From contig CBDDPY010000002.1 of assembly GCA_965232515.1 (NCBI GenBank), forward strand, positions 3,744,001-3,808,000: a stretch of 64,000 bases of DNA. The letters run 5' to 3'. A model generated the notes under the pieces. The model had not been told where the DNA came from. It ran no database searches and saw only the letters and a program-made list of their open reading frames with translations. Both the position numbers and the translations under genes were made by a program. How positions within the stretch are numbered: position 1 is the first letter of the stretch; each line of letters begins with the position of its first letter. Source of the DNA: Alphaproteobacteria bacterium. GTDB lineage: Bacteria; Pseudomonadota; Alphaproteobacteria; GCA-2731375. Shown here piece after piece: positions 1 through 10,561 of this stretch.

Positions 1-556
1 CGTCATCACCCGCCGCCGCGGCGACGGCAGCAAGGTCGCGTCCGCCGTGGCCGAAGACTCGCCGATCTGGCACTTTCGCTTCGCGCGCCGGCACGACGGC
101 GCGTCCGTCCGGCTGATCGATCATACCGTGCTGCGGATCGACACAACGACCGAGCAGGGCGTTTGGACCCGCTTTCTCGGACCCCGCTCCAGCTATATCC
201 GGATCAAGCGTCGCTTTGCCGAACCGGACTGCCAGCCGATCGGGGCCGAGATGTTTCTCGACCCCGCGCTGGCGCCGGGCCTGTCGCAACTGACGGCGAG
301 CGATCTGGAGATGATCAATATTCGCGCGCACCTCTTCGAGCAGTTCGGCATCGAGACGATCGGCGCCGAGCATCGCGTGCAGACGGCGACCGCGGACGCC
401 GCGACGGCGAGGACCTTCGGCATTGCGCCCGGCGAAGCGGTCTTCGAGATCCACGCCGAGGCGTTCTCGCACGACCACAGGCCGACATACTTTCAGCGCA
501 TCTATGTGCCGACGGCCGACTACGTGCTGCTGTTTCGCAACCTGATCGCGCGCTAA
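1..556 (+). CDS. GntR/HutC-family transcriptional regulator (wHTH wing + UTRA domain), 5'-truncated by window edge
   Basis: Frame 2 from base 2 reads VITRRRGDGSKV (GntR wing) and continues into ORF 47..556 with a UTRA-like C-terminus (AEHRVQTATADAATARTFGIAPGEAVF). Confidence 0.8.
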   Translation, partial: VITRRRGDGSKVASAVAEDSPIWHFRFARRHDGASVRLIDHTVLRIDTTTEQGVWTRFLGPRSSYIRIKRRFAEPDCQPIGAEMFLDPALAPGLSQLTASDLEMINIRAHLFEQFGIETIGAEHRVQTATADAATARTFGIAPGEAVFEIHAEAFSHDHRPTYFQRIYVPTADYVLLFRNLIAR

Positions 557-569
557 CGGCAGAACGCCG

Positions 570-797
570 TCATCCGACGAAGAGGATGATGAAAGCGATG
601 ATCAAGGCAAACAGCGCGATCGCCTCGGTCAGCGCGAAGCCGAGCAGGCCGACGGGCTGCACGACCTCGCCGGCGCCAGGGTTGCGGGCGATAGACGAAA
701 TCCAGTCGGCGAAGATCTTGCCGAGCGCGAGGGCGACGCCGAGCAGTGGAAGCACGGCGAACGAAGCCGCCAGCAGTCGGATGCCATCATCGGTCAT
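570..797 (-). CDS. atpE: F0F1 ATP synthase subunit c (orphan paralog)
   Basis: 75 aa helical hairpin with ARNP loop and GFALTEAIALFAL carrying the essential Glu; AAGGAG RBS upstream. Confidence 0.93.
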   Translation of the reverse strand: MTDDGIRLLAASFAVLPLLGVALALGKIFADWISSIARNPGAGEVVQPVGLLGFALTEAIALFALIIAFIILFVG

Positions 798-851
798 ATC
801 TTGGTCTCCTTTTCATTGACGTAAGCGATGGAGCCGGGGGGCTGGCTTTGG

Positions 852-1616
852 CTAATGCGCATGCAGCGCGTCCCGGATGTAGAGCGATGTGATCAGGATG
901 AAGATGTAGGCCTGGACCAGGAAGATCAGGCACTCGAAGCCGTAGAGCACGATCATCATGATGACCGGCAGGATCGAGACGCCCAATCCGGTCACGCCGA
1001 GCGCTTCCGTCAACATGACGCAGAAGTCCGCGAACAGCTTGATCATGATGTGGCCGGCAAGAATGTTGGCGAAGATCCGAACGCCGAGCGTGATCGGCCG
1101 GAACAGGTACGAGATCACCTCGATAACGACGAGCACGGGCGCGAGATAGAGCGGCGTGCCGGCCGGCAGGAAAAAGCGGAAGAAGCCCGCCCCTTGCGTG
1201 CGTACGGCGAGGATGTTGACGTAGGCGAAGACGGTCAGCGACAGGGCGAGCGTCACCACCAGGTGGCTCGTGAACGTAAACTTGATCGGCGTCAGGCCGA
1301 TCAGGCTGCCGAACAGGATGAAGACGAACAGCGAGAACACGAACGGAATCGCCGAACGGGCTTCCTGCCCGGCGGTCTTGACCACCGTGTTGGCGACGAA
1401 GGAATAGACCGCCTCGACACTTGCCTGCATGCGGCCGGGCACCAGCGCCCGCTCCCGGATACCGTACATCAGGTAGGCGCTGACCAGGATGACCGTGGTG
1501 ATCATCGCCTGCGCCGATGTCGTGAATGACACGTTCGCGCCGAACAGCTCGAGCGGCACCAGCACGTCGATCTCAAACTGCCTTATGGCGTAAGGGGCTT
1601 CCGGTTCGTAAGCCAC
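852..1616 (-). CDS. atpB: F0F1 ATP synthase subunit a (orphan paralog)
   Basis: FRPITLGVRIFANILAGH (essential Arg), LVQAYIFILITSLY, alphaproteobacterial-type N-terminus (QFEI..L..VSFT). GTG at 1616 lies 8 nt after AGGAGAGG; TTG at 1622 is an alternative start. Confidence 0.95.
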   Translation of the reverse strand: MAYEPEAPYAIRQFEIDVLVPLELFGANVSFTTSAQAMITTVILVSAYLMYGIRERALVPGRMQASVEAVYSFVANTVVKTAGQEARSAIPFVFSLFVFILFGSLIGLTPIKFTFTSHLVVTLALSLTVFAYVNILAVRTQGAGFFRFFLPAGTPLYLAPVLVVIEVISYLFRPITLGVRIFANILAGHIMIKLFADFCVMLTEALGVTGLGVSILPVIMMIVLYGFECLIFLVQAYIFILITSLYIRDALHAH

Positions 1617-1626
1617 AAACAAAACC

Positions 1627-1672
1627 TCTCCTGCGCGGCGGGCGTCATGCCCGCCGGCCGACGCGCAGGAGA
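1627..1672 (-). promoter_or_regulatory. GC-rich leader hairpin occluding the atpB Shine-Dalgarno
   Basis: mRNA UCUCCUGCGC-GUCGGCC-GGCGGGC-AUGAC-GCCCGCC-GCGCAGGAGA; the 3' arm contains the SD and is followed by GGUUUUGUUUG. Confidence 0.55.
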
Positions 1673-1748
1673 TGTTGGCTTACCGATAGAATTAAAACGG
1701 CTGAGTTGATCGGCTTTTCCGATCATGGCGCGGCGGGCCCGCCGCCGG

Positions 1749-2669
1749 TCACTGCATGACCGTGACTTCCGGCACCCCGCTCCTCAAGATCCCGCGAACC
1801 AGCGCGGCCAAGGCGGAGAACTCTTCCGTGCGTGCGGAGTGACGCCGCCAGATCATGCCGATCGAGCGGAACGGCGCCCGCGTGCGCAGCGGCAAGGCGA
1901 CGACCTGTTCATCGTTCAACACCTCGGAGCGGACGTAGAGCGCGGGCAGGAATGACAGTCCCATGCCCATGCCCACCATCTGCCGGAGGGTGTCCAGGCT
2001 GGTGCCCTCATAGTCGAGCGAGAGCCTGGCGCCGAACTGATTACAGAGATCGCGGACCTGATCGTGCAAGCGATGACCCTGTTCCAGCGACAGCACGGTC
2101 TCGCCTTCCAGGTCGGAGCGGTCGACATGCTTACGCTTGGCCAGGCGGTGATCGCGGGGCACCACCACCCACAGCGGCTCGCGGAACAGCGGCACGCTTT
2201 CGAGGTCGGCGCCCTTCACCGGCGCCGGAAACAGCAGCAGATCGAGATTCCCCTCGTCGAGGCCGGTGAGCAGCATGCGCGGCATGGCCTCGCGCACGTA
2301 GAGCCTGAGGTTGGGATAGGTTTGCCGCAGTTCCGGCAGGATATGCGGCAGCAGATACGGCCCCAACGAATGCAGGATACCAAGCCGTATCGTCCCGCCC
2401 AGCAAGGTCTGATCGTGCTTGGCCAGCGCCACAATGTCCTGCACGTCCCGCAGGATGACCCGCGCGCGCGTCGCGATCTCACCGCCGATGGGGGTCAGGA
2501 TAACCCGCGCCCGGCTGCGCTCGACCAGCTGCACGCCGAGCTTCTTCTCGAGCTCGCTGAGCTGCCCGCTCAGAGTCGGCTGGGTGACGTGGCTGATCTC
2601 CGCGGCGCGGCGGAAATGCAATGTGTCGGCAATGGCAACCAGATAACGCAGTTGCTGCAACGTCGGCAT
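1749..2669 (-). CDS. OxyR-like LysR-family regulator lacking the peroxidatic Cys
   Basis: MPTLQQLRYL...HFRRAAE...VTQPTLSGQ HTH; LEQGHRLHDQVRDLC aligns with the OxyR LEDGHCLRDQAMGFC motif; GTSLDTLRQMV. ATG at 2669 follows AAGGAG. Confidence 0.88.
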   Translation of the reverse strand: MPTLQQLRYLVAIADTLHFRRAAEISHVTQPTLSGQLSELEKKLGVQLVERSRARVILTPIGGEIATRARVILRDVQDIVALAKHDQTLLGGTIRLGILHSLGPYLLPHILPELRQTYPNLRLYVREAMPRMLLTGLDEGNLDLLLFPAPVKGADLESVPLFREPLWVVVPRDHRLAKRKHVDRSDLEGETVLSLEQGHRLHDQVRDLCNQFGARLSLDYEGTSLDTLRQMVGMGMGLSFLPALYVRSEVLNDEQVVALPLRTRAPFRSIGMIWRRHSARTEEFSALAALVRGILRSGVPEVTVMQ

Positions 2670-2851
2670 GTTCAGACCCCACTCCTTGTCAAAACGCTTT
2701 CGAAAGGCGAAGCCTATCGAAACTTGTCTTAACTTCGATTGGTTCGATGAGATTTTCAAGCGCATATCTGCGGAGCATTGGCCAGGACGCCGATGCGGTC
2801 CGGCTCGGCTGGGCCGGATTACCCTCTGGCGACGCGGAGCAGACGGACGGT

Positions 2852-3820
2852 ATGAAGCGTTTCAAGAACATTCTCATGGTCTGCGACGACCAGGGCCTGC
2901 ACGACGCGATGATCGGCCGCGCCATCTGGCTGGCCAAGGCCAACGACGCCCGGATCACACTGGTCGATATCGTCGACGCTGCGCCCGGCGACCTGACGCG
3001 AAAGTTCGCCGCCCTGCCGGGCTCAAGGTCATATGATTTCGAATACGAGGTGCTGGAGCTGCACCGCGCGCGGTTGAGCGAGATCGGCGGCGCCTTTCGA
3101 GCGGAAAAGATCGATACGACGGAGCTGGTGCTGCAAGGCACGCCGTTCATCGAGATCATCAAGCAGGTCCTGCGCGCGGAGCACGACCTTGTTTTCAAAG
3201 GCGTGGATCAGCCGTCCGACACGAACAGCTTTTTCTTCTCCAGCACCCACTTGCATCTGCTGCGCAAGTGCCCCTGCCCGGTCTGGGTCATCAAGAAGAG
3301 CCGTCGCCGTCAATACGCCCGGGTGCTGGCCGCCGTCGATCCGGATCCGGCGGACCCCGGCCGCAACGCGCTCAACCGGCTGATCATGGACCTGTCGACC
3401 TCGCTCTCGGCGCTGGACGGCAGCGAACTGCATGTGCTGAACGCCTGGGGCTTCGGCGAAGAGACGACGCTGCGTCACAGCGCATTCCTCAAGATTCCCG
3501 AGGAGGATCTCGACATCCTCATCGAGGAGGAGCGGAAGCGAAGCGCCGAGAGGTTGGATCAGCTGTTGCTGAACTATCCTGGCGACAAATCCGGGTCTGG
3601 CCCGGACCGCCAGATTCACCTGATCAAGGGCAACGCGCCGGAGGTGATACCTGAATTCGCGCGGAAGCGGCGGGTGGAGCTGATCGTCATGGGCACGGTC
3701 GCCCGCACCGGCATCAGCGGGCTGTTCATCGGCAACACGGCGGAGTCCATCCTCAGCCAGATCGAATGCTCGATCCTCGCCGTCAAGCCGCCGGGCTTCG
3801 AAACACCGGTGAAGTTGTAG
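2852..3820 (+). CDS. uspE: Universal stress protein, tandem USP domains (UspE-like)
   Basis: MKRFKNILMV; HLLRKCPCPVW; LIVMGTVARTGISGLFIGNTAESIL..CSILAVKP. Confidence 0.88.
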   Translation: MKRFKNILMVCDDQGLHDAMIGRAIWLAKANDARITLVDIVDAAPGDLTRKFAALPGSRSYDFEYEVLELHRARLSEIGGAFRAEKIDTTELVLQGTPFIEIIKQVLRAEHDLVFKGVDQPSDTNSFFFSSTHLHLLRKCPCPVWVIKKSRRRQYARVLAAVDPDPADPGRNALNRLIMDLSTSLSALDGSELHVLNAWGFGEETTLRHSAFLKIPEEDLDILIEEERKRSAERLDQLLLNYPGDKSGSGPDRQIHLIKGNAPEVIPEFARKRRVELIVMGTVARTGISGLFIGNTAESILSQIECSILAVKPPGFETPVKL

Positions 3821-3847
3821 GCGCGCGTTCGCGACGCGCTGCGGGGT

Positions 3848-4033
3848 TCACTCGGCGCGTTGCAGCACGCGCTCGCGACGCCAGAAGACCTGCGCCACAT
3901 AGGCTTCGGCCGAGTCGTGTCCGAACCGCGCCAGGCAATCATGGTAAACGGCTTCGGCCCGACCAACGGCACACATTTCCATGTCCGACTTGCCCTGCGC
4001 GTCGCGCACCCGTCCCAACTTGGTTTCCGACAT
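3848..4033 (-). CDS. Small hypothetical protein (61 aa)
   Basis: Clear GGAGG RBS 9 nt before the ATG; fills an otherwise empty gap and diverges from the DUF465 gene across an AT-rich promoter region. Confidence 0.55.
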   Translation of the reverse strand: MSETKLGRVRDAQGKSDMEMCAVGRAEAVYHDCLARFGHDSAEAYVAQVFWRRERVLQRAE

Positions 4034-4144
4034 CGGCCGTCCCTCCAGCTATCAGTGCGGCCTTGCAGCCGCGACGCCTTCCCCTTAGCAATCAATTTGG
4101 CGGCACCGGCCGGCCGCGGCCAATCGATCCGCAGGCGTAAGTTC

Positions 4145-4260
4145 ATCGAATCCCGCAATCAACCGCCGCGCCCATCAAATCGATTGACCATGACGATCCC
4201 ATATCAACTTTTTGATAGAAACAAACAATCAATACTTTGAAGAAAATCGACTAGGACAAT
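4145..4260. promoter_or_regulatory. Four LysR/OxyR-type boxes ATNG-N7-CNAT in a divergent promoter region
   Basis: ATCG-aatcccg-CAAT (4145), ATTG-accatga-CGAT (4183), ATAG-aaacaaa-CAAT (4215), ATCG-actagga-CAAT (4246). Confidence 0.65.
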
Positions 4261-4343
4261 CGGCCGCGAGCAGCCACATCCAAGCCAGTCAGCCAATCGG
4301 AATTCGGCAGACGTATCGGGACCGAGCAGGAGGAAATGGGCCA

Positions 4344-4562
4344 ATGGACATCGAAAACCGCTACGACGCGCTGATCGAGCGGCACTGCAGACTGGAAACC
4401 AAAATCGCTGCCGAACAAAAAAGGCCCCTGCCCGACGCGCTCCTGTTGCAACGGTTGAAGCGCGAGAAGCTGCTGCTGAAAGACGAGATCGAGTCGTGGG
4501 AACGGTTGTTGGCGGCGATTAAGGTCCGGCCGGTCTTCCGGGCCGGCGCGCCGCACGCCTGA
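4344..4562 (+). CDS. DUF465/YdcH-family small protein
   Basis: LIERHCRLETKIAAEQKRPLPDALLLQRLKREKLLLKDEI signature; AGGAGG RBS. Confidence 0.85.
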   Translation: MDIENRYDALIERHCRLETKIAAEQKRPLPDALLLQRLKREKLLLKDEIESWERLLAAIKVRPVFRAGAPHA

Positions 4563-4665
4563 TCCGTAGGAGACGGTGTTCAGGGGGCGGTACGGAATTC
4601 AATTGCATCGGATGGTGGGAAAGGGGACTTGATCCGACGTCACTGATAAACATGTCTACGCATGG

Positions 4666-4698
4666 CGGCCCCAGCCTCGCGGTGGGGCCGTTTTTCTT
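4666..4698 (+). terminator. Intrinsic terminator between the DUF465 gene and mrpA
   Basis: CGGCCCCA-gcctcgcgg-TGGGGCCG followed by TTTTTCTT. Confidence 0.8.
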
Positions 4699-4822
4699 CG
4701 GCTGGTCCGCCTCTGCGATAGACCGCGTGTCCGGCCAGCGTTATCAGATCCGCCCGTCGATCGAATTCAGCCCGTGGTCGACGAACCACCAACAATCAAC
4801 CGAATAAGGAACCGGAAGCGGA

Positions 4823-7120
4823 ATGAACAGGTCGGCGTCGCGGGGGGATCAGCAAGCGGACGGCACTTACGGCGAGAGCGGCAAAAGCAGAGCCGGTTTC
4901 GGCTGGCTGCCGGCGTTGCTGCCTGCCGCGTTCGCAGTGCTTTTCGCAACCGCCCTGCCGACCATCGCCGATGGCGACCCTATTCGGCTCGCTTACAACT
5001 GGGTGCCAAGTCTCGGCATCAATTTCTCCCTGCTACTCGATGGCCTGAGCCTGGCCTTCGCGCTGCTGATCAGCGGCATCGGTTTCTTCGTCACGCTCTA
5101 TGCGCGAACCTATCTCGCCGGCCATCCGCATCTCGGCCGGTTCACGCTCTACCTGCTCGCGTTCATGGTCGCGATGCTCGGCCTGGTGCTGGCCGACAAC
5201 CTGATTACGCTGTTCGTGTTCTGGGAGCTCACCACCCTCACCTCCTACTTCCTGATCGGCTTCAATCATGCCTCGGCCGACTCCCGCCGGTCGGCGCTGC
5301 AGGCGCTGTTGCTGACCGGCGCAGGCGGGCTGGCATTGCTGGCCGGTCTCATCCTGTTGGGCAACGTCGCCGGCAGCTTCGAGCTCTCCGAGATCCTCGC
5401 CCAGGGCGACCTGATCCGCGGCCACGACCTCTACCTGCCGATCCTGATCCTGGTGCTGCTGGGCGCGTTCACCAAATCGGCGCAGGTGCCGTTCCATTTC
5501 TGGCTGCCCAACGCCATGGCCGCCCCGACACCGGTCAGCGCCTATCTGCACTCGGCAACCATGGTGAAGGCCGGCATTTACCTGCTCGCCCGCATGCACC
5601 CGGCGCTCAGCGGCACGGAGGTCTGGATCTGGTCGCTCACCATCTTCGGCGCGGTGACGGCGCTGGCAGCCTCCGTGATCGCGCTACGACAGACGGACCT
5701 GAAACTGGCGCTCGCTTATACGACCGTCATGGCGCTCGGCACGCTGACCATGTTTCTGGGCGCCGAGGCGACGGTGGCGATCGCCGCCGCGATGACCTTC
5801 CTGGTCGTGCATTCGCTCTACAAGGCGTCTCTGTTCCTGATCGTCGGCATCCTCGACCACCAGGCCGGCAGCCGGGACGCCGAACGCTTGCGTGGCCTCG
5901 CCCGCGCCATGCCGATCACCGCAGCCGCGGCCGCCGCGGCCGCGCTGTCCATGGCCGGCTTTCCGCCGTTCCTGGGCTTCATCGGCAAGGAGCTGAAATA
6001 CGAAGGGGCGCTGGCCATCGCATCGGAACCGGCATTCGTCGCCACGGCGGCGGTGCTGGCCAATGCCCTGATGGTGGCGGTCGCCGGCATCGTCGCGCTG
6101 CGGCCGTTCTACGGCAGGCGGATTACGGCGGCCAAGACACCGCACGAGGCGCCCGTCGCGCTGTGGATCGGTCCCGTCGTACTGGCGAGTCTCGGCCTGA
6201 TCTTCGGCCTCGCGCCCTCGCTGATCGCCGACAGCCTGATCCAGCCCGCCGTGACCGCGATCCTCGGCCGGCCGGAGACCGTCAAGCTGGCGCTCTGGCA
6301 CGGCATCAACCTGCCGCTCGCCCTCAGTCTGCTCACCTTCTCCATCGGCCTGACGGTCTATGTCGTCCACGAGCGTCTTCGCCGCCTGCTGATCCGCGTC
6401 GAGGCAGGACTGCCGGCCACGGCCGATCAGGTCTGGGACCGGTTGCTCGACGGCCTGAAGGCGGTGGCCGCGGTACAGACGCGCGTCCTGCAGGGCGGCC
6501 TGTTGCGGCGCTATATGTTCATCGTCTTCGCCAGCGTCGCCGTCGCCGTCGGCGTCACGCTCGCCGCGACCGAGGCGGTGCGCCTGCCGGCCGAATGGCC
6601 CGAGCTGCTGTTCAAGCACTGGGCCTCGGTCGCGCTGATCGCGTCTGGCGCCATCATGACGGCGCTCTCCAAGACACGGCTTGCCGCGATTTGCGCGCTG
6701 GGCGTCGTCGGTGTCGGTGTGGCCTTGCTGTTCGTGATGTTCGGCGCGCCGGACCTCGCCATCACCCAGTTGCTGGTCGAGACCCTTGTGGTGGTGCTGG
6801 TCGGCGTGGTGATGCTCAGATTGCCCGGCCTCGATCAAGGCGCCCGCCCGGGGCGCGGCGCCGATGCGCTGCTGTCGGTCGCCGTCGGCGCGGTGGTCGC
6901 GCTGACGCTGCTGGCGGTCGTCGCCAGCCCCATCGACCGCTCGATCACCGACTATTTCGAAACGGCGAGCGTCGCCGAGGCGTTCGGGCGGAACATCGTC
7001 AACGTTATCCTGGTTGACTTCCGCGCCCTCGACACGTTCGGCGAGGTGGCCGTCGTCGCGGTCGCCGCAATCGGCGCCTACGCCCTGATCCGCGGCACGC
7101 GGCGGCGGGAACAGCCATGA
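4823..7120 (+). CDS. mrpA: Mrp Na+/H+ antiporter subunit A
   Basis: [38 protein letters not shown]; [20 protein letters not shown]. Confidence 0.96.
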
Positions 7121-7536
7121 ACTCGCTGATCCTGAGCACGGCGACCCGGCTTCTGGTGGCGCTGATGCTGCTGTTTTCGGTCTATATGCTGCTGCGCGGC
7201 CACAACGATCCGGGCGGCGGTTTCATCGGCGGACTGCTCGCCGGCATCGGCTTCGCGCTTTACGCCATCGCGCACGGCACCGCCGCAGCGCGCCGCGCCC
7301 TGCGCTTCGAGCCGCAGGCCATCGCCATGGTCGGCCTCGGCATCGCCTTGCTGGCGGGACTGTGGGCCGCCGTATTCGGCGACCCGCTGTTCACCGGGCA
7401 GTGGTGGTTCGTCGGCGCCAGCGACGACGACAAGGGGCTGCCGATCAGCTCGGTCCTGGTGTTCGACATCGGCGTCTATCTGGTCGTCGTCGGCGCCGTG
7501 CTGACGCTAGTCCTGGGTCTGGAAGAGGAGGTCTGA
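7117..7536 (+). CDS. mrpB: Mrp antiporter subunit B
   Basis: [16 protein letters not shown]; [11 protein letters not shown]; ATGA overlap with mrpA. Confidence 0.95.
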
Positions 7537-7538
7537 TC

Positions 7539-7910
7539 GTGGAGGCCGTGCTCGCGCTCCTGATCGGCGTCCTGGTGGCCGCCAGCGTCTACCTGATGTT
7601 GGCGCGCAACGTGATGCGCTTCCTGTTCGGCCTGGTGCTGCTCGGCAATGCGGCCAACCTGACCATCTTTGTGGCCGGACGCCTGACGCCGGAAGCCCCG
7701 CCCCTGGTGCCGGACGGCCTGACCGTGCCGCCCGAGCAGGTGGCGAACGCCCTGCCGCAGGCCCTGGTGCTGACCGCCATCGTGATCGGCTTCGGCCTGC
7801 TCGCCTTTACGCTGGTGCTGGTCTATCGCGGCTATCAGACGCTCGGCACGCTCGACAGCGACGCCATGCGCGTCGCCGAGCCGGTCGAAACCGACGGCGG
7901 CAAGCCATGA
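7539..7910 (+). CDS. mrpC: Mrp antiporter subunit C
   Basis: GTG start at 7539; [18 protein letters not shown] motif. Confidence 0.93.
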
Positions 7911-9409
7911 ACTGGCTGCTCGCCCTGCCGATCGTGCTGCCGTTCGTGACGGCGGTGCCGGCGTTTCTGTTGCGGGACAGGGGCGCTGCCGGACGCTGGA
8001 TCAGCCTCGGCGGCTGCGTTCTGCTGCTGCTCGCATCGGCGGCACTGATGGCCGCGGTCTGGCGCGAGGGCGTCATCGCCGCGCAGATGGGGGACTGGCC
8101 GGCGCCGTTCGGAATCACCCTGGTCGCCGATCTGTTGAGCGCCGTCATGGTGGTGATCACCGCGATCACCGGCCTCGCCGTCGCCGCCTATGCGCTCGCC
8201 GACATCGATTCGCGTCGGGAGTCGCTGGGCTATCATGCCCTATTCCAGATCCTGCTGGCCGGCGTCTGCGGCGCGTTCCTCACCGGCGACATCTTCAATC
8301 TCTATGTCTGGTTCGAGGTGATGCTGATCGCCTCGTTCGGCCTGCTGGTGCTGGGCGGCGACAAGGCGCAGCTCGACGGCGGCATCAAATACGTCACCCT
8401 GAACCTGGTCTCGACGGCGCTATTCCTCGCCGGCATCGGCCTGCTCTACGGCATGACCGGCACGCTGAACATGGCCGACCTGCACCTCGCCGTGCGCGAG
8501 GTCGAGAATACCGGCCTGCTGACTGTTGTGGCCGTCCTGTTCATCGTCGCCTTCGGCGTCAAGGCCGCAGTGTTTCCGCTGTTCTTCTGGCTGCCGGCTT
8601 CCTATCACACGCCACCGGTCGCGGTGTCGGCCGTCTTCGCCGGTCTGCTGACCAAGGTCGGCGTCTATGCGCTGATCCGCACCTTCACACTGATCTTCAC
8701 GCACGACACCGGCTATACGCACGGCCTGCTGCTGATCATTGCCGGTCTGACCATGGTCACCGGCGTGCTCGGCGCCGCGGCGCAGAACGAATTCCGCAAG
8801 ATCCTGTCGTTCCACATCGTCAGCCAGATCGGCTACATGGTGCTGGGCTTGGCGCTCTACACGCCGCTGGCGCTGGTCGGCGCGGTGTTCTATCTGGTCC
8901 ACCACATCATCGTGAAAGCGAACCTGTTCCTGGTGTCGGGCATCTCCAAACGGCTGACAGGATCGTTCGAGCTGTCGCAGATCGGCGGGCTCTACAAGTC
9001 GAGCCCCGTGCTCGCGATCCTGTTCCTGGTGCCGGCCTTCTCGCTGGCCGGCTTCCCGCCATTGTCCGGTTTCTGGGCCAAGTTCCTGCTGGTCAAGGCG
9101 AGCCTCGATATCGAGGCCTATCTGATCGCGGCGACGGCTTTGGTCGTCGGTATCCTGACCGTGTTCTCCATGACCAAGATCTGGGCCGAGGCGTTCTGGA
9201 AACCGCATCCCGCTGGCACCGCGCCGGTGCTTGCCGCCGTCGCCCCAGCCGAGCGCTACGCCCTGCTGGCGCCCGTCGTGGCGCTCGCCGGCCTCACCGT
9301 CGTGATCGGCCTCTACCCGGAACCGTTCGTGGGCTTCGCGGAGCGCTCGGCCGCTCAGTTGCTGGATCCCGCGCGCTACGTCGCGGCCGTGCTGGGCAGG
9401 ACGCCATGA
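7907..9409 (+). CDS. mrpD: Mrp antiporter subunit D
   Basis: [21 protein letters not shown]; [15 protein letters not shown]; [10 protein letters not shown]. Confidence 0.95.
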
Positions 9410-9879
9410 ACATCTTCGTTCTGAACGCCTTTCTGGCCGTCAGCTGGGCGGCGCTGATCGGCAGCTTTTCGGCGACCAACCTGCTGCTCGGCTACGGCAT
9501 CGGCTATCTCGCGCTCTGGATCGCGCGCCCGTTGTTCGGCGAGAGCAGCTATTTCGAGCGAGTCTGGCGCGTCCTGCGTCTTGCCGCCCTCTTCATCTAT
9601 GAACTGATCGTCTCCAGCCTGCGCGTGGTCTGGGACGTGCTGACGCCGACGCATCTGAGCCGCCCCGGCATCATCGCTCTACCGCTGGACGTAACCCGCG
9701 ACGACGAGATCCTGCTGGTCGCCAACCTGATCTCGTTGACGCCGGGCTCGTTGAGCCTCGACCTGTCCGCCGACCGGAAAACGCTCTACGTGCACGCCAT
9801 GTTCGTCGACGACCCAGAAAAAATCCGGCGCGAGCTGAAGATGGGCATGGAGCGCCGGGTGCTGGAGGCGCTGGAATGA
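9406..9879 (+). CDS. mrpE: Mrp antiporter subunit E
   Basis: [21 protein letters not shown]. Confidence 0.94.
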
Positions 9880-10199
9880 TGTTCGACAACGGCCGGATTC
9901 TCGACCTGGCGATCGAGGCATCGTTTGGGATGATCATGATCGCCCTGGTGCTTGCCTTCATCCGCCTCGCGCGCGGGCCGAGCCTGCCGGACCGGGTCGT
10001 GGCGCTGGACCTCATCACCATTCTGGCCGTCGCCTTCTGCGCGCTGTTCGCGATCTCGTCGGACCAGCAGGCCTTTCTCGATGTCGCCATCGCGCTGGCG
10101 CTGGTGGCGTTCCTGGCGACGGTCGCGCTCGCCCGGTTCGCCGAACGGCGCAAGGCGCGTTCCGAACGGCGGCCGGACGACGCGGAGGCCGGACCGTGA
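9876..10199 (+). CDS. mrpF: Mrp antiporter subunit F
   Basis: RLARGPSLPDRVVALD. Confidence 0.93.
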   Translation: MMFDNGRILDLAIEASFGMIMIALVLAFIRLARGPSLPDRVVALDLITILAVAFCALFAISSDQQAFLDVAIALALVAFLATVALARFAERRKARSERRPDDAEAGP

Positions 10200-10561
10200 G
10201 CGAGATCCTGACCGCCTTTTTCGTCGTCGCCGGCGGCTTCTTCGCGCTGGCCGCGGCGCTTGGCGTGCTGCGTCTGCCCGATGTGCTGATCCGCATGCAC
10301 GCGTCCACCAAGGCCGGCACGCTCGGCTGCGGCCTCACGCTGGTGGCCGTTGCCGTGCATTTCGGCGAGATCGGCATCACCGCGCGCGCCATCGCCGCCA
10401 TCGTCTTCCTGCTGCTGACGGCGCCCGTCGCCGCCCACATGATCGGCCGCGCCGCCTATCGCACCGGCGTGCCGCTGTGGCACGGTATGACCATCGACGA
10501 GGCCGCGAAACCGCCGGCCGAGAGCGCCGAACGGCGCGAGCAGAGCGCGCCGTCCGATTGA
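10196..10561 (+). CDS. mrpG: Mrp antiporter subunit G
   Basis: GVLRLPDVLIRMHASTKAGTLG; LLLTAPVAAHMIGRAAY. Confidence 0.94.
   Translation: MSEILTAFFVVAGGFFALAAALGVLRLPDVLIRMHASTKAGTLGCGLTLVAVAVHFGEIGITARAIAAIVFLLLTAPVAAHMIGRAAYRTGVPLWHGMTIDEAAKPPAESAERREQSAPSD

Follow-up and report, generated by a model that had tools for sequence, protein, structure and literature searches.

The described systems closest to the one reported here are the N-ATPase, the rotor subunits c1, c2, and c3 of Acetobacterium woodii, whose genes reportedly sit within a single atp operon, the ATPases of Photobacterium profundum SS9, and the c subunit of alkaliphilic Bacillus. The H+/ATP ratio has been taken as fixed per species by a single c-ring. 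According to a passage in PMC10054830, P. profundum SS9 has two complete ATPase sets. The inner helices of the ring pack through a GxGxGxG-type motif, and in Bacillus pseudofirmus OF4 two Ala-to-Gly changes turned a c13 ring into c12 and gave poorer growth at high pH, as stated in part of PMC4453477, where larger c-rings are also held to help at low proton motive force (pmf). Here, we analyzed a 64,000-nucleotide (nt) stretch of an alphaproteobacterial genome (contig CBDDPY010000002.1, positions 3,744,001 to 3,808,000; hereafter the window), in which genes for subunits a and c of F0 stand together as an orphan pair. The module is a conserved family of paralogs that is built from known parts and has an architecture and a regulator of its own, and it may provide the cell with an alternative rotor and stator for its ATP synthase.

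The pair and the genes that bound it are located at the left end of the window, whose coordinates are used throughout, as follows.

570-797, minus strand: paralog c subunit, 75 amino acids (aa), PF00137, with AGGAGA 8 nt ahead of the ATG
798-851, minus strand: spacer between a and c, 54 nt
852-1616, minus strand: paralog a subunit, 254 aa, PF00119, with a GTG start and GGAGAGG 8 nt upstream
1749-2669, minus strand: LysR regulator, 306 aa, PF00126 and PF03466, upstream of a on the same strand
1-556, plus strand: 3' part of a GntR/UTRA regulator gene, convergent with c, with a UTRA domain; the open reading frame (ORF) passes the left edge of the window

Transcription on the minus strand runs from LysR through a 126-nt spacer to a, and then through the 54-nt spacer to c. 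The longest ORF of a (852-1622) begins at an alternative start, a TTG at 1622; the GTG at 1616 is preferred. Because c lies directly behind a in all 23 informative loci (19 genome loci, G319, and three metagenome contigs), the two genes most likely form a single transcription unit. Both products scored above their Pfam cut-offs (181.9 bits against 33.9 for a with PF00119, and 38.8 bits against 24 for c with PF00137). With the NCBIfam models, a reached 280.5 bits for the alphaproteobacterial equivalog NF004482, exceeding its cut-off of 225, and c reached 61.2 bits for the housekeeping alphaproteobacterial equivalog NF005733, under its cut-off of 85.

The rest of the ATP synthase was located in the genome of the window (G000; 7.39 Mb in four contigs), which has a sister genome (G001). 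Exactly two PF00119 matches, housekeeping a and paralog a, were found in G000, together with four PF00137 matches, namely, housekeeping c, paralog c, and two repeats in a V/A-type ATPase K subunit. The housekeeping F0 operon lies 0.72 Mb from the pair (G000:C2, about 3.0226 to 3.0251 Mb) and consists of a 147-aa ORF in the atpI position (a candidate atpI), a (244 aa), c (75 aa), b' (163 aa), and b (161 aa), in that order. PF00430 (ATP-synt_B) exceeded its cut-off only at C2:3024176-3025038, with one further sub-threshold chance match, and PF00006 detected one F-type alpha/beta pair (C2:5.118-5.121 Mb), a V-type A/B pair, and four other matches. In this genome-wide profile search, no PF00430 or F1 gene was found near the a/c pair, which does not have the atpI-B-E-F'-F arrangement. 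A preliminary description of this DNA had presented the pair as a and c without atpI, b, b', or F1, bounded by LysR and a convergent GntR gene, and had stated that both genes look intact. The coordinates, Pfam, and the genome-wide PF00430 and PF00006 searches agree with this, and Arg180 of a, Glu58 and the RNP loop of c, and the ribosome-binding sites GGAGAGG and AGGAGA are all present. The same description had named a split housekeeping operon as one outcome that would refute it. This possibility was ruled out by the separate canonical F0 operon with its own a and c; the pair does not represent the only atpB and atpE copies. The paralogs are distant from these copies, with 46% identity between the two a subunits over 240 aa and 47% between the two c subunits over 68 aa (57% over 44 aa by BLASTP with composition adjustment). 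With a protein query, G000 and G001 each showed one paralog-level and one housekeeping-level a match, and G000 and five other genomes (G041-G045) contained exactly two PF00119 matches each. A housekeeping a subunit was present in all of the carrier genomes checked. The V/A-type ATPase operon of G000 (C2, about 5,690,000-5,700,000; L008) encodes A, B, D, E-like, I, and double-hairpin K subunits.

The protein-database listings for a and c comprise at least 120 clusters each, and the cluster counts given below refer to listed clusters. Relatives of paralog a showed 59 to 96% identity among the matches listed, in which the named sources of clusters are Kiloniellales, Pelagibius litoralis, Hyphomicrobiales, Aestuariivirga, and Rhodospirillales. 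Relatives of paralog c, among the matches listed, showed 64 to 100% identity and were almost all exactly 75 aa long. Species-representative genomes yielded 19 paralog loci, and both frames are intact in all 23 loci showing both genes. Queries with housekeeping atpI, b, and b' gave no tblastn match in the locus flanks, and none of the 85 neighbor ORFs from 18 related loci belonged to an ATP-synthase Pfam family. Within the window's own family, the pair is present in the sister genome only, among 24 other genomes. When metagenomes were scanned with the family alignment, most matches were housekeeping a; five of the 80 kept loci were of the paralog type, all on short contigs. Pelagibius litoralis DSM 21314 (locus L030) is a cultured carrier with a genome. 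No description of an orphan a/c pair was found in full-text searches of the literature, and the matches to "subunit c paralog" concerned methane monooxygenase. As a separate observation, 8 of the 14 genomes of a non-alphaproteobacterial family (f32; e.g., G054, G062, G066, G070, and G090) carry two full-length a genes, which are 50 to 60 kb apart or on separate contigs and probably belong to two ATPase operons.

The origin of the family was examined with a maximum-likelihood tree of 63 a subunits, comprising 19 paralogs, 28 alphaproteobacterial housekeeping proteins, and 16 proteins of other classes; L045, a truncated housekeeping ORF, was omitted. The paralog a clade was monophyletic, with a Shimodaira-Hasegawa-like approximate likelihood ratio test (SH-aLRT) value of 100 and a stem of 1.24 changes per site, and it was nested in the alphaproteobacterial a group (SH-aLRT, 99), apart from the other classes. 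The sister of the clade had low support in this tree, and long-branch attraction was flagged. The a/c pair is a distinct monophyletic paralog family that occurs in several alphaproteobacterial groups and is rare and patchy. Ratios of nonsynonymous to synonymous substitution rates (dN/dS), calculated by the Nei-Gojobori method (NG86), were 0.061 to 0.187 for paralog a (9 pairs) and 0 to 0.196 for paralog c (10 pairs). Between the window's genome and its sister, the values were 0.083 for paralog a and 0.019 for paralog c, and those for housekeeping a, c, and b' were 0.044, 0, and 0.094, respectively. The strength with which selection maintains the a/c pair is thus close to that for the housekeeping F0 genes. 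The purifying dN/dS ruled out a decaying duplicate or pseudogene; both the phylogeny and the dN/dS values, which had been proposed as checks, came out as a monophyletic clade under purifying rather than relaxed selection.

Both subunits retain the residues of the ion path. In subunit a, R180, N184, and H189 (GVRIFANILAGH), E228, and Q235 were invariant in 28 family members and aligned with the housekeeping residues. The Arg of helix 5 is essential, and the Asn/His, Glu, and Gln are half-channel residues. Subunit c of the window contains Glu58 (in LTEA), the Arg38-Asn39-Pro40 loop, and Pro17, as well as G20xA22xA24xG26 followed by K27, D31, and W32. The Glu of LTEA was found in 114 of the 120 listed c clusters, and the RNP loop, which docks gamma and epsilon in F-type c subunits, was at the expected place in 119; the remaining cluster is short or lacks the loop. 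A Na+-coupled c subunit carries Gln in helix 1 and Ser or Thr directly behind the carboxylate. This type was ruled out, since the paralog has Ala59 behind Glu58 and a hydrophobic Leu25 13 residues ahead of Arg38, the same as the housekeeping proton-type c.

The difference between the two c subunits lies in helix 1. The packing motif of housekeeping alphaproteobacterial c was GxGxGxG in 14 of 15 sequences and GxGxGxA in the other, whereas in the paralog it was GxAxAxG in 64, AxAxAxG in 52, and GxAxGxG in 3 of 119 listed clusters, giving (G/A)xAxAxG in 116 of them. The N-terminal stretch IGAGLA of housekeeping c is mostly AAA or ATA in the paralog (94 of 118 readable listed clusters). In addition, a Pro upstream of the motif (119 of 119 listed clusters) and a Trp six residues ahead of the loop Arg (119 of 120) are found in the paralog, whereas neither is conserved in housekeeping c. 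Outer helix 2 of the paralog is nearly identical to housekeeping helix 2, and the divergence is centered on inner helix 1. The changed packing motif suggests that the ring may have an altered geometry.

The regulator and the sequence between it and a contain the following features.

1749-2669, minus strand: OxyR-like LysR; Arg stands in place of the peroxidatic Cys (GHRLHDQ), and the second Cys is retained
1709-1723: palindromic LysR-type box ATCGG-N5-CCGAT (T-N11-A), centered 100 nt upstream of the a start
1627-1672, minus strand: GC-rich leader hairpin, -46.1 kcal/mol, z -4.08, with 0 of 200 shuffles as stable
2670-2852: divergent LysR/Usp promoter region, with a one-mismatch half-box at 2703-2717 (weak evidence)

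An OxyR protein was recognized by the NF008361 cut-off and by a peroxidatic Cys in GHC with the resolving Cys 9 residues later. The window LysR was the best OxyR-like match of the genome to NF008361 (249.8 bits, under the cut-off of 329), and in an alignment with solved OxyR proteins it had Arg at the position of the peroxide-sensing Cys. The second OxyR-like gene of G000 (C2:3149282; 238.8 bits) has the canonical GHC...VC. Judged from these residues, the a/c-linked LysR represents a Cys-less branch of the OxyR family. In this branch (window 1749-2669; L022-L039; L087 and L088), the Cys position is occupied by Arg, Ala, Gln, or His, and two genomes without the a/c pair (G008 and G012) also have such a LysR, with GHHLHDQ. 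At the orthologue level, the a/c-linked LysR was found in the sister genome only, among 30 family genomes. An OxyR-like LysR lies at most 2.1 kb upstream of a in 13 of the 18 informative related loci, as well as in the window.

The box of the window was the sole exact match in the 64 kb. Its consensus, AT(A/C)G(G/T)-N5-(C/A)CNAT with the center 95 to 101 nt upstream of the a start, was present in all six related loci that have a same-strand LysR directly upstream of a. It was found neither in the three close loci without an adjacent LysR nor in L029, in which LysR is divergent. The box of L022 is ATAG-N7-CTAT, the OxyR core. The half-box at 2703-2717 is weak because a one-mismatch search of the window gave 16 matches against 8.6 expected. 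The leader hairpin lies between the box and the start codon; its 3' arm overlaps part of the Shine-Dalgarno sequence of a (1625-1631), and UUUUGUUUG (a U-run) comes next. It could act as a terminator of LysR, an attenuator, or a translational gate. By eye, a CUCC-type stretch is also visible upstream in several related loci, where it could base-pair with the Shine-Dalgarno sequence of the same locus. A sigma-70 promoter scan of window positions 400-3000 gave 0 sites, and an Rfam scan of positions 1-5000 gave 0 matches at E <= 0.1.

Upstream of the regulator, the window continues with genes on the other strand.

2853-3820, plus strand: tandem universal stress protein (Usp; UspE-like), divergent from LysR
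4212-4562, plus strand: DUF465 small protein, start uncertain
4823-10561, plus strand: seven-gene Mrp/Pha-type cation:proton antiporter operon, MrpA to MrpG

The Mrp antiporter is central to alkaline and salt homeostasis. Usp was found in 9 and MrpA in 8 of the 19 genome loci, all in a Kiloniellales/Pelagibius-like subclade. In an Aestuariivirga/Rhodobiaceae-like subclade, the order is LysR-dps-a-c, with a Dps-type ferritin between LysR and a in six loci (L032, L033, L034, L038, L039, and the metagenome contig L093); these six loci showed no Mrp match within the flanks searched. The regulator is the constant partner of the pair; the partners that vary are all genes for stress or ion homeostasis. 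In the LysR-dps-a-c loci, a palindromic box lies upstream of LysR instead (ATTGATGCCGACAAT in three loci). The DUF465 gene immediately precedes the Mrp operon in the window and in three other loci (L023:4296-4514, L029:11069-11341, and L031:4873-5127), and it stands between Usp and Mrp in the window, L023, and L031. In a Dongiaceae locus (L037:6870-7964), a gene for a TerC-family membrane protein, 30 nt ahead of a on the same strand, replaces LysR. On the other side of the pair, the counterpart of the convergent gene in the sister genome (83% identical) encodes a GntR helix-turn-helix and a UTRA domain; this GntR/UTRA gene is part of a neighboring tctA unit and is outside the a/c module. Its stop and that of c are 13 nt apart (window 554-572), which leaves hardly any space for separate terminators.

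We consider with about even confidence that the pair encodes a stress-regulated alternative F0 rotor/stator module assembling with the housekeeping b, b', and F1. This reading is preferred because only a and c are duplicated, the two are inseparable, c retains the loop that docks F1, there is a single set of b, b', and F1, and the housekeeping set is always present. The adjacent Cys-less OxyR-like LysR would control the synthesis of a, which contributes the stator half-channels, and of c, which forms the rotor ring, probably with induction under stress. The paralogs would then join the only b, b', delta, and F1 of the cell to form a second proton-driven ATP synthase isoform. Because the ring-packing Gly of helix 1 is replaced by Ala, this isoform would most likely have a different ring geometry or stoichiometry and hence another H+/ATP ratio. 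If the curvature of the ring were changed, subunit a would have to fit it, which may account for a and c always occurring together with b, b', and F1 shared. Of the weight given to the alternative F0, perhaps a third to half falls to a truly different ring stoichiometry. The isoform would suit a low or altered pmf under conditions in which Mrp, Usp, or Dps is needed as well, and the neighbors suggest use when the pmf is low or the ion balance is disturbed. The preliminary description had proposed swap-in parts. A conserved, regulated family fits this idea; the swap into the housekeeping enzyme and the H+ leak, as read from sequence, are still proposals. The helix-1 motif, the Cys-less regulator with its box, and the Mrp/Usp or Dps neighbors are the strongest clues and go beyond that earlier reading.

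Several observations weigh against the alternative F0. The peroxide-sensing Cys is replaced by Arg, Ala, or Gln in all 14 a/c-linked LysRs, with the second Cys kept, and an adjacent LysR is absent in 5 of the 18 informative loci. The motif alone gives no ring size: among solved structures, the closest c subunits are mitochondrial, and an Ala also occurs once in the motif of yeast c, which forms a c10 ring. The link between helices 5 and 6 of paralog a is 9 residues longer than that of Paracoccus denitrificans a and has the same length as that of yeast a. As a sign of a larger ring it was dropped, since the equally long yeast link makes it uninformative on ring size. The module was present in 1 of 400 other genomes of the class in an even sample (337 of them at least 90% complete). 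RNA-library contigs from three RNA-seq runs of one study covered parts of a (829-1080, 1045-1342, and 1396-1615) as well as LysR, Usp, and Mrp at a depth of 2 to 8. These contigs come from a 95 to 99% identical relative and have an even, low depth over genes and spacers, DNA carry-over being possible, and they were not counted as expression.

A bolder form of the alternative F0 is a gear shift, which we regard as tentative. On a stress signal, the rotor ring and the matching stator subunit would be swapped for the co-evolved a/c pair on the same F1 and stalks, which would change the protons per ATP or make F0 a controlled proton inlet working with Mrp. A regulated proton conduit, which corresponds to the H+ leak of the preliminary description, is the main rival and is unlikely. 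Here the paralog a and c, with or without housekeeping b and b', would form an F0 without F1 through which H+ would enter down the membrane potential; at high pH or salt, this influx and Mrp would together lower the cytoplasmic pH. A complete Mrp operon lies near the pair, and is probably regulated with it, in the window and in 8 of 19 loci, and the duplicated subunits are those of the ion path alone. However, the F1-docking loop kept in all but one of the listed c clusters would be needless in an F1-free pore, the six Dps-subclade loci lack an Mrp match within the flanks searched, and an open F0 is generally harmful.

It is quite unlikely that the two genes are functionally equivalent back-up copies, which would replace housekeeping a and c when these are damaged or repressed under stress (e.g., by oxidative damage) and would leave the properties of the enzyme unchanged. 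The adjoining OxyR-like regulator and Dps or Usp would fit such copies, as would catalytic residues of the same type as in the housekeeping subunits. The stem length of 1.24 and the 46 to 47% identity to the housekeeping copies argue against equivalence, and the helix-1 signature (Pro17, Ala22, Ala24, and Trp32), conserved family-wide, points to a distinct selected property. Target duplication for resistance appears very unlikely. Poisons of the oligomycin/venturicidin type have their binding sites on the c ring or where a and c meet, and a duplicated pair could offer an inhibitor-insensitive interface against such natural F0 poisons; the duplicated, divergent subunits are exactly those that form the known inhibitor sites, and their distribution is patchy and accessory-like. 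However, the 85 neighbor ORFs include no biosynthetic or efflux genes and the neighbors are stress and ion-homeostasis genes, and the divergence lies in inner helix 1, with the inhibitor-facing outer helix 2 almost unchanged. A nonfunctional or silent leftover of a transferred operon, to which the rarity of the pair and expression evidence limited to even, low-depth RNA contigs might point, is strongly disfavored by dN/dS far under 1 in every pair compared, intact frames in 23 loci, at least 120 clusters for each gene, and a conserved cis box.

If the alternative F0 is correct, the H+/ATP ratio or the coupling would be physiologically changeable. The gear shift, if it exists, would represent a modular and regulated exchange of rotor and stator, the first for an F-type enzyme. 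The question is directly testable in the cultured carrier P. litoralis DSM 21314. The family also supplies natural (G/A)xAxAxG variants for the study of ring-size determinants and adds a Cys-less OxyR-like regulator branch tied to ion-homeostasis and stress genes. Current annotation masks the family as "F0F1 ATP synthase subunit A/C" or "subunit C family protein."

Compared with known systems, the pair resembles the N-ATPase (atpDCQRBEFAG), an alternate F1F0, in providing second F-type membrane subunits beside the housekeeping enzyme. The N-ATPase operon, however, is complete and includes F1, b, AtpQ, and AtpR genes of its own, whereas here a and c stand alone. Membership was rejected by the scores against TIGR03306 (46.4 against 302.1 bits) and TIGR03322 (25.1 against 130.85 bits) and by the single F-type alpha/beta pair of the genome. 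The pair is similar to A. woodii c1/c2/c3 and to P. profundum SS9 in that several rotor subunits or enzyme sets occur in one cell and tune the enzyme, and it differs from both, neither of which, as described, has an orphan a and c pair. It resembles the c subunit of alkaliphilic Bacillus (AxAxAxA, c13) in having Ala for Gly in the helix-1 motif, with AxAxAxG in 52 of the 119 listed paralog clusters. In Bacillus, the helix-1 motif sets the ring size and supports growth at high pH, as stated in part of PMC4453477. The Bacillus motif belongs to the sole housekeeping c of an obligate alkaliphile, whereas that of the paralog belongs to an extra, regulated copy with its own a; the Bacillus PxxExxP motif is absent from paralog c, which keeps LTEA. 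Altogether, the pair shares with the housekeeping alphaproteobacterial a and c the PF00119 and PF00137 folds, the Arg, Asn, His, Glu, and Gln of a, the Glu and RNP loop of c, and the proton-type site. Unlike them, it has no atpI, b, or b' beside it, shares 46 to 47% identity with the housekeeping copies, and forms a long-stem clade of its own with the (G/A)xAxAxG motif and its own LysR.

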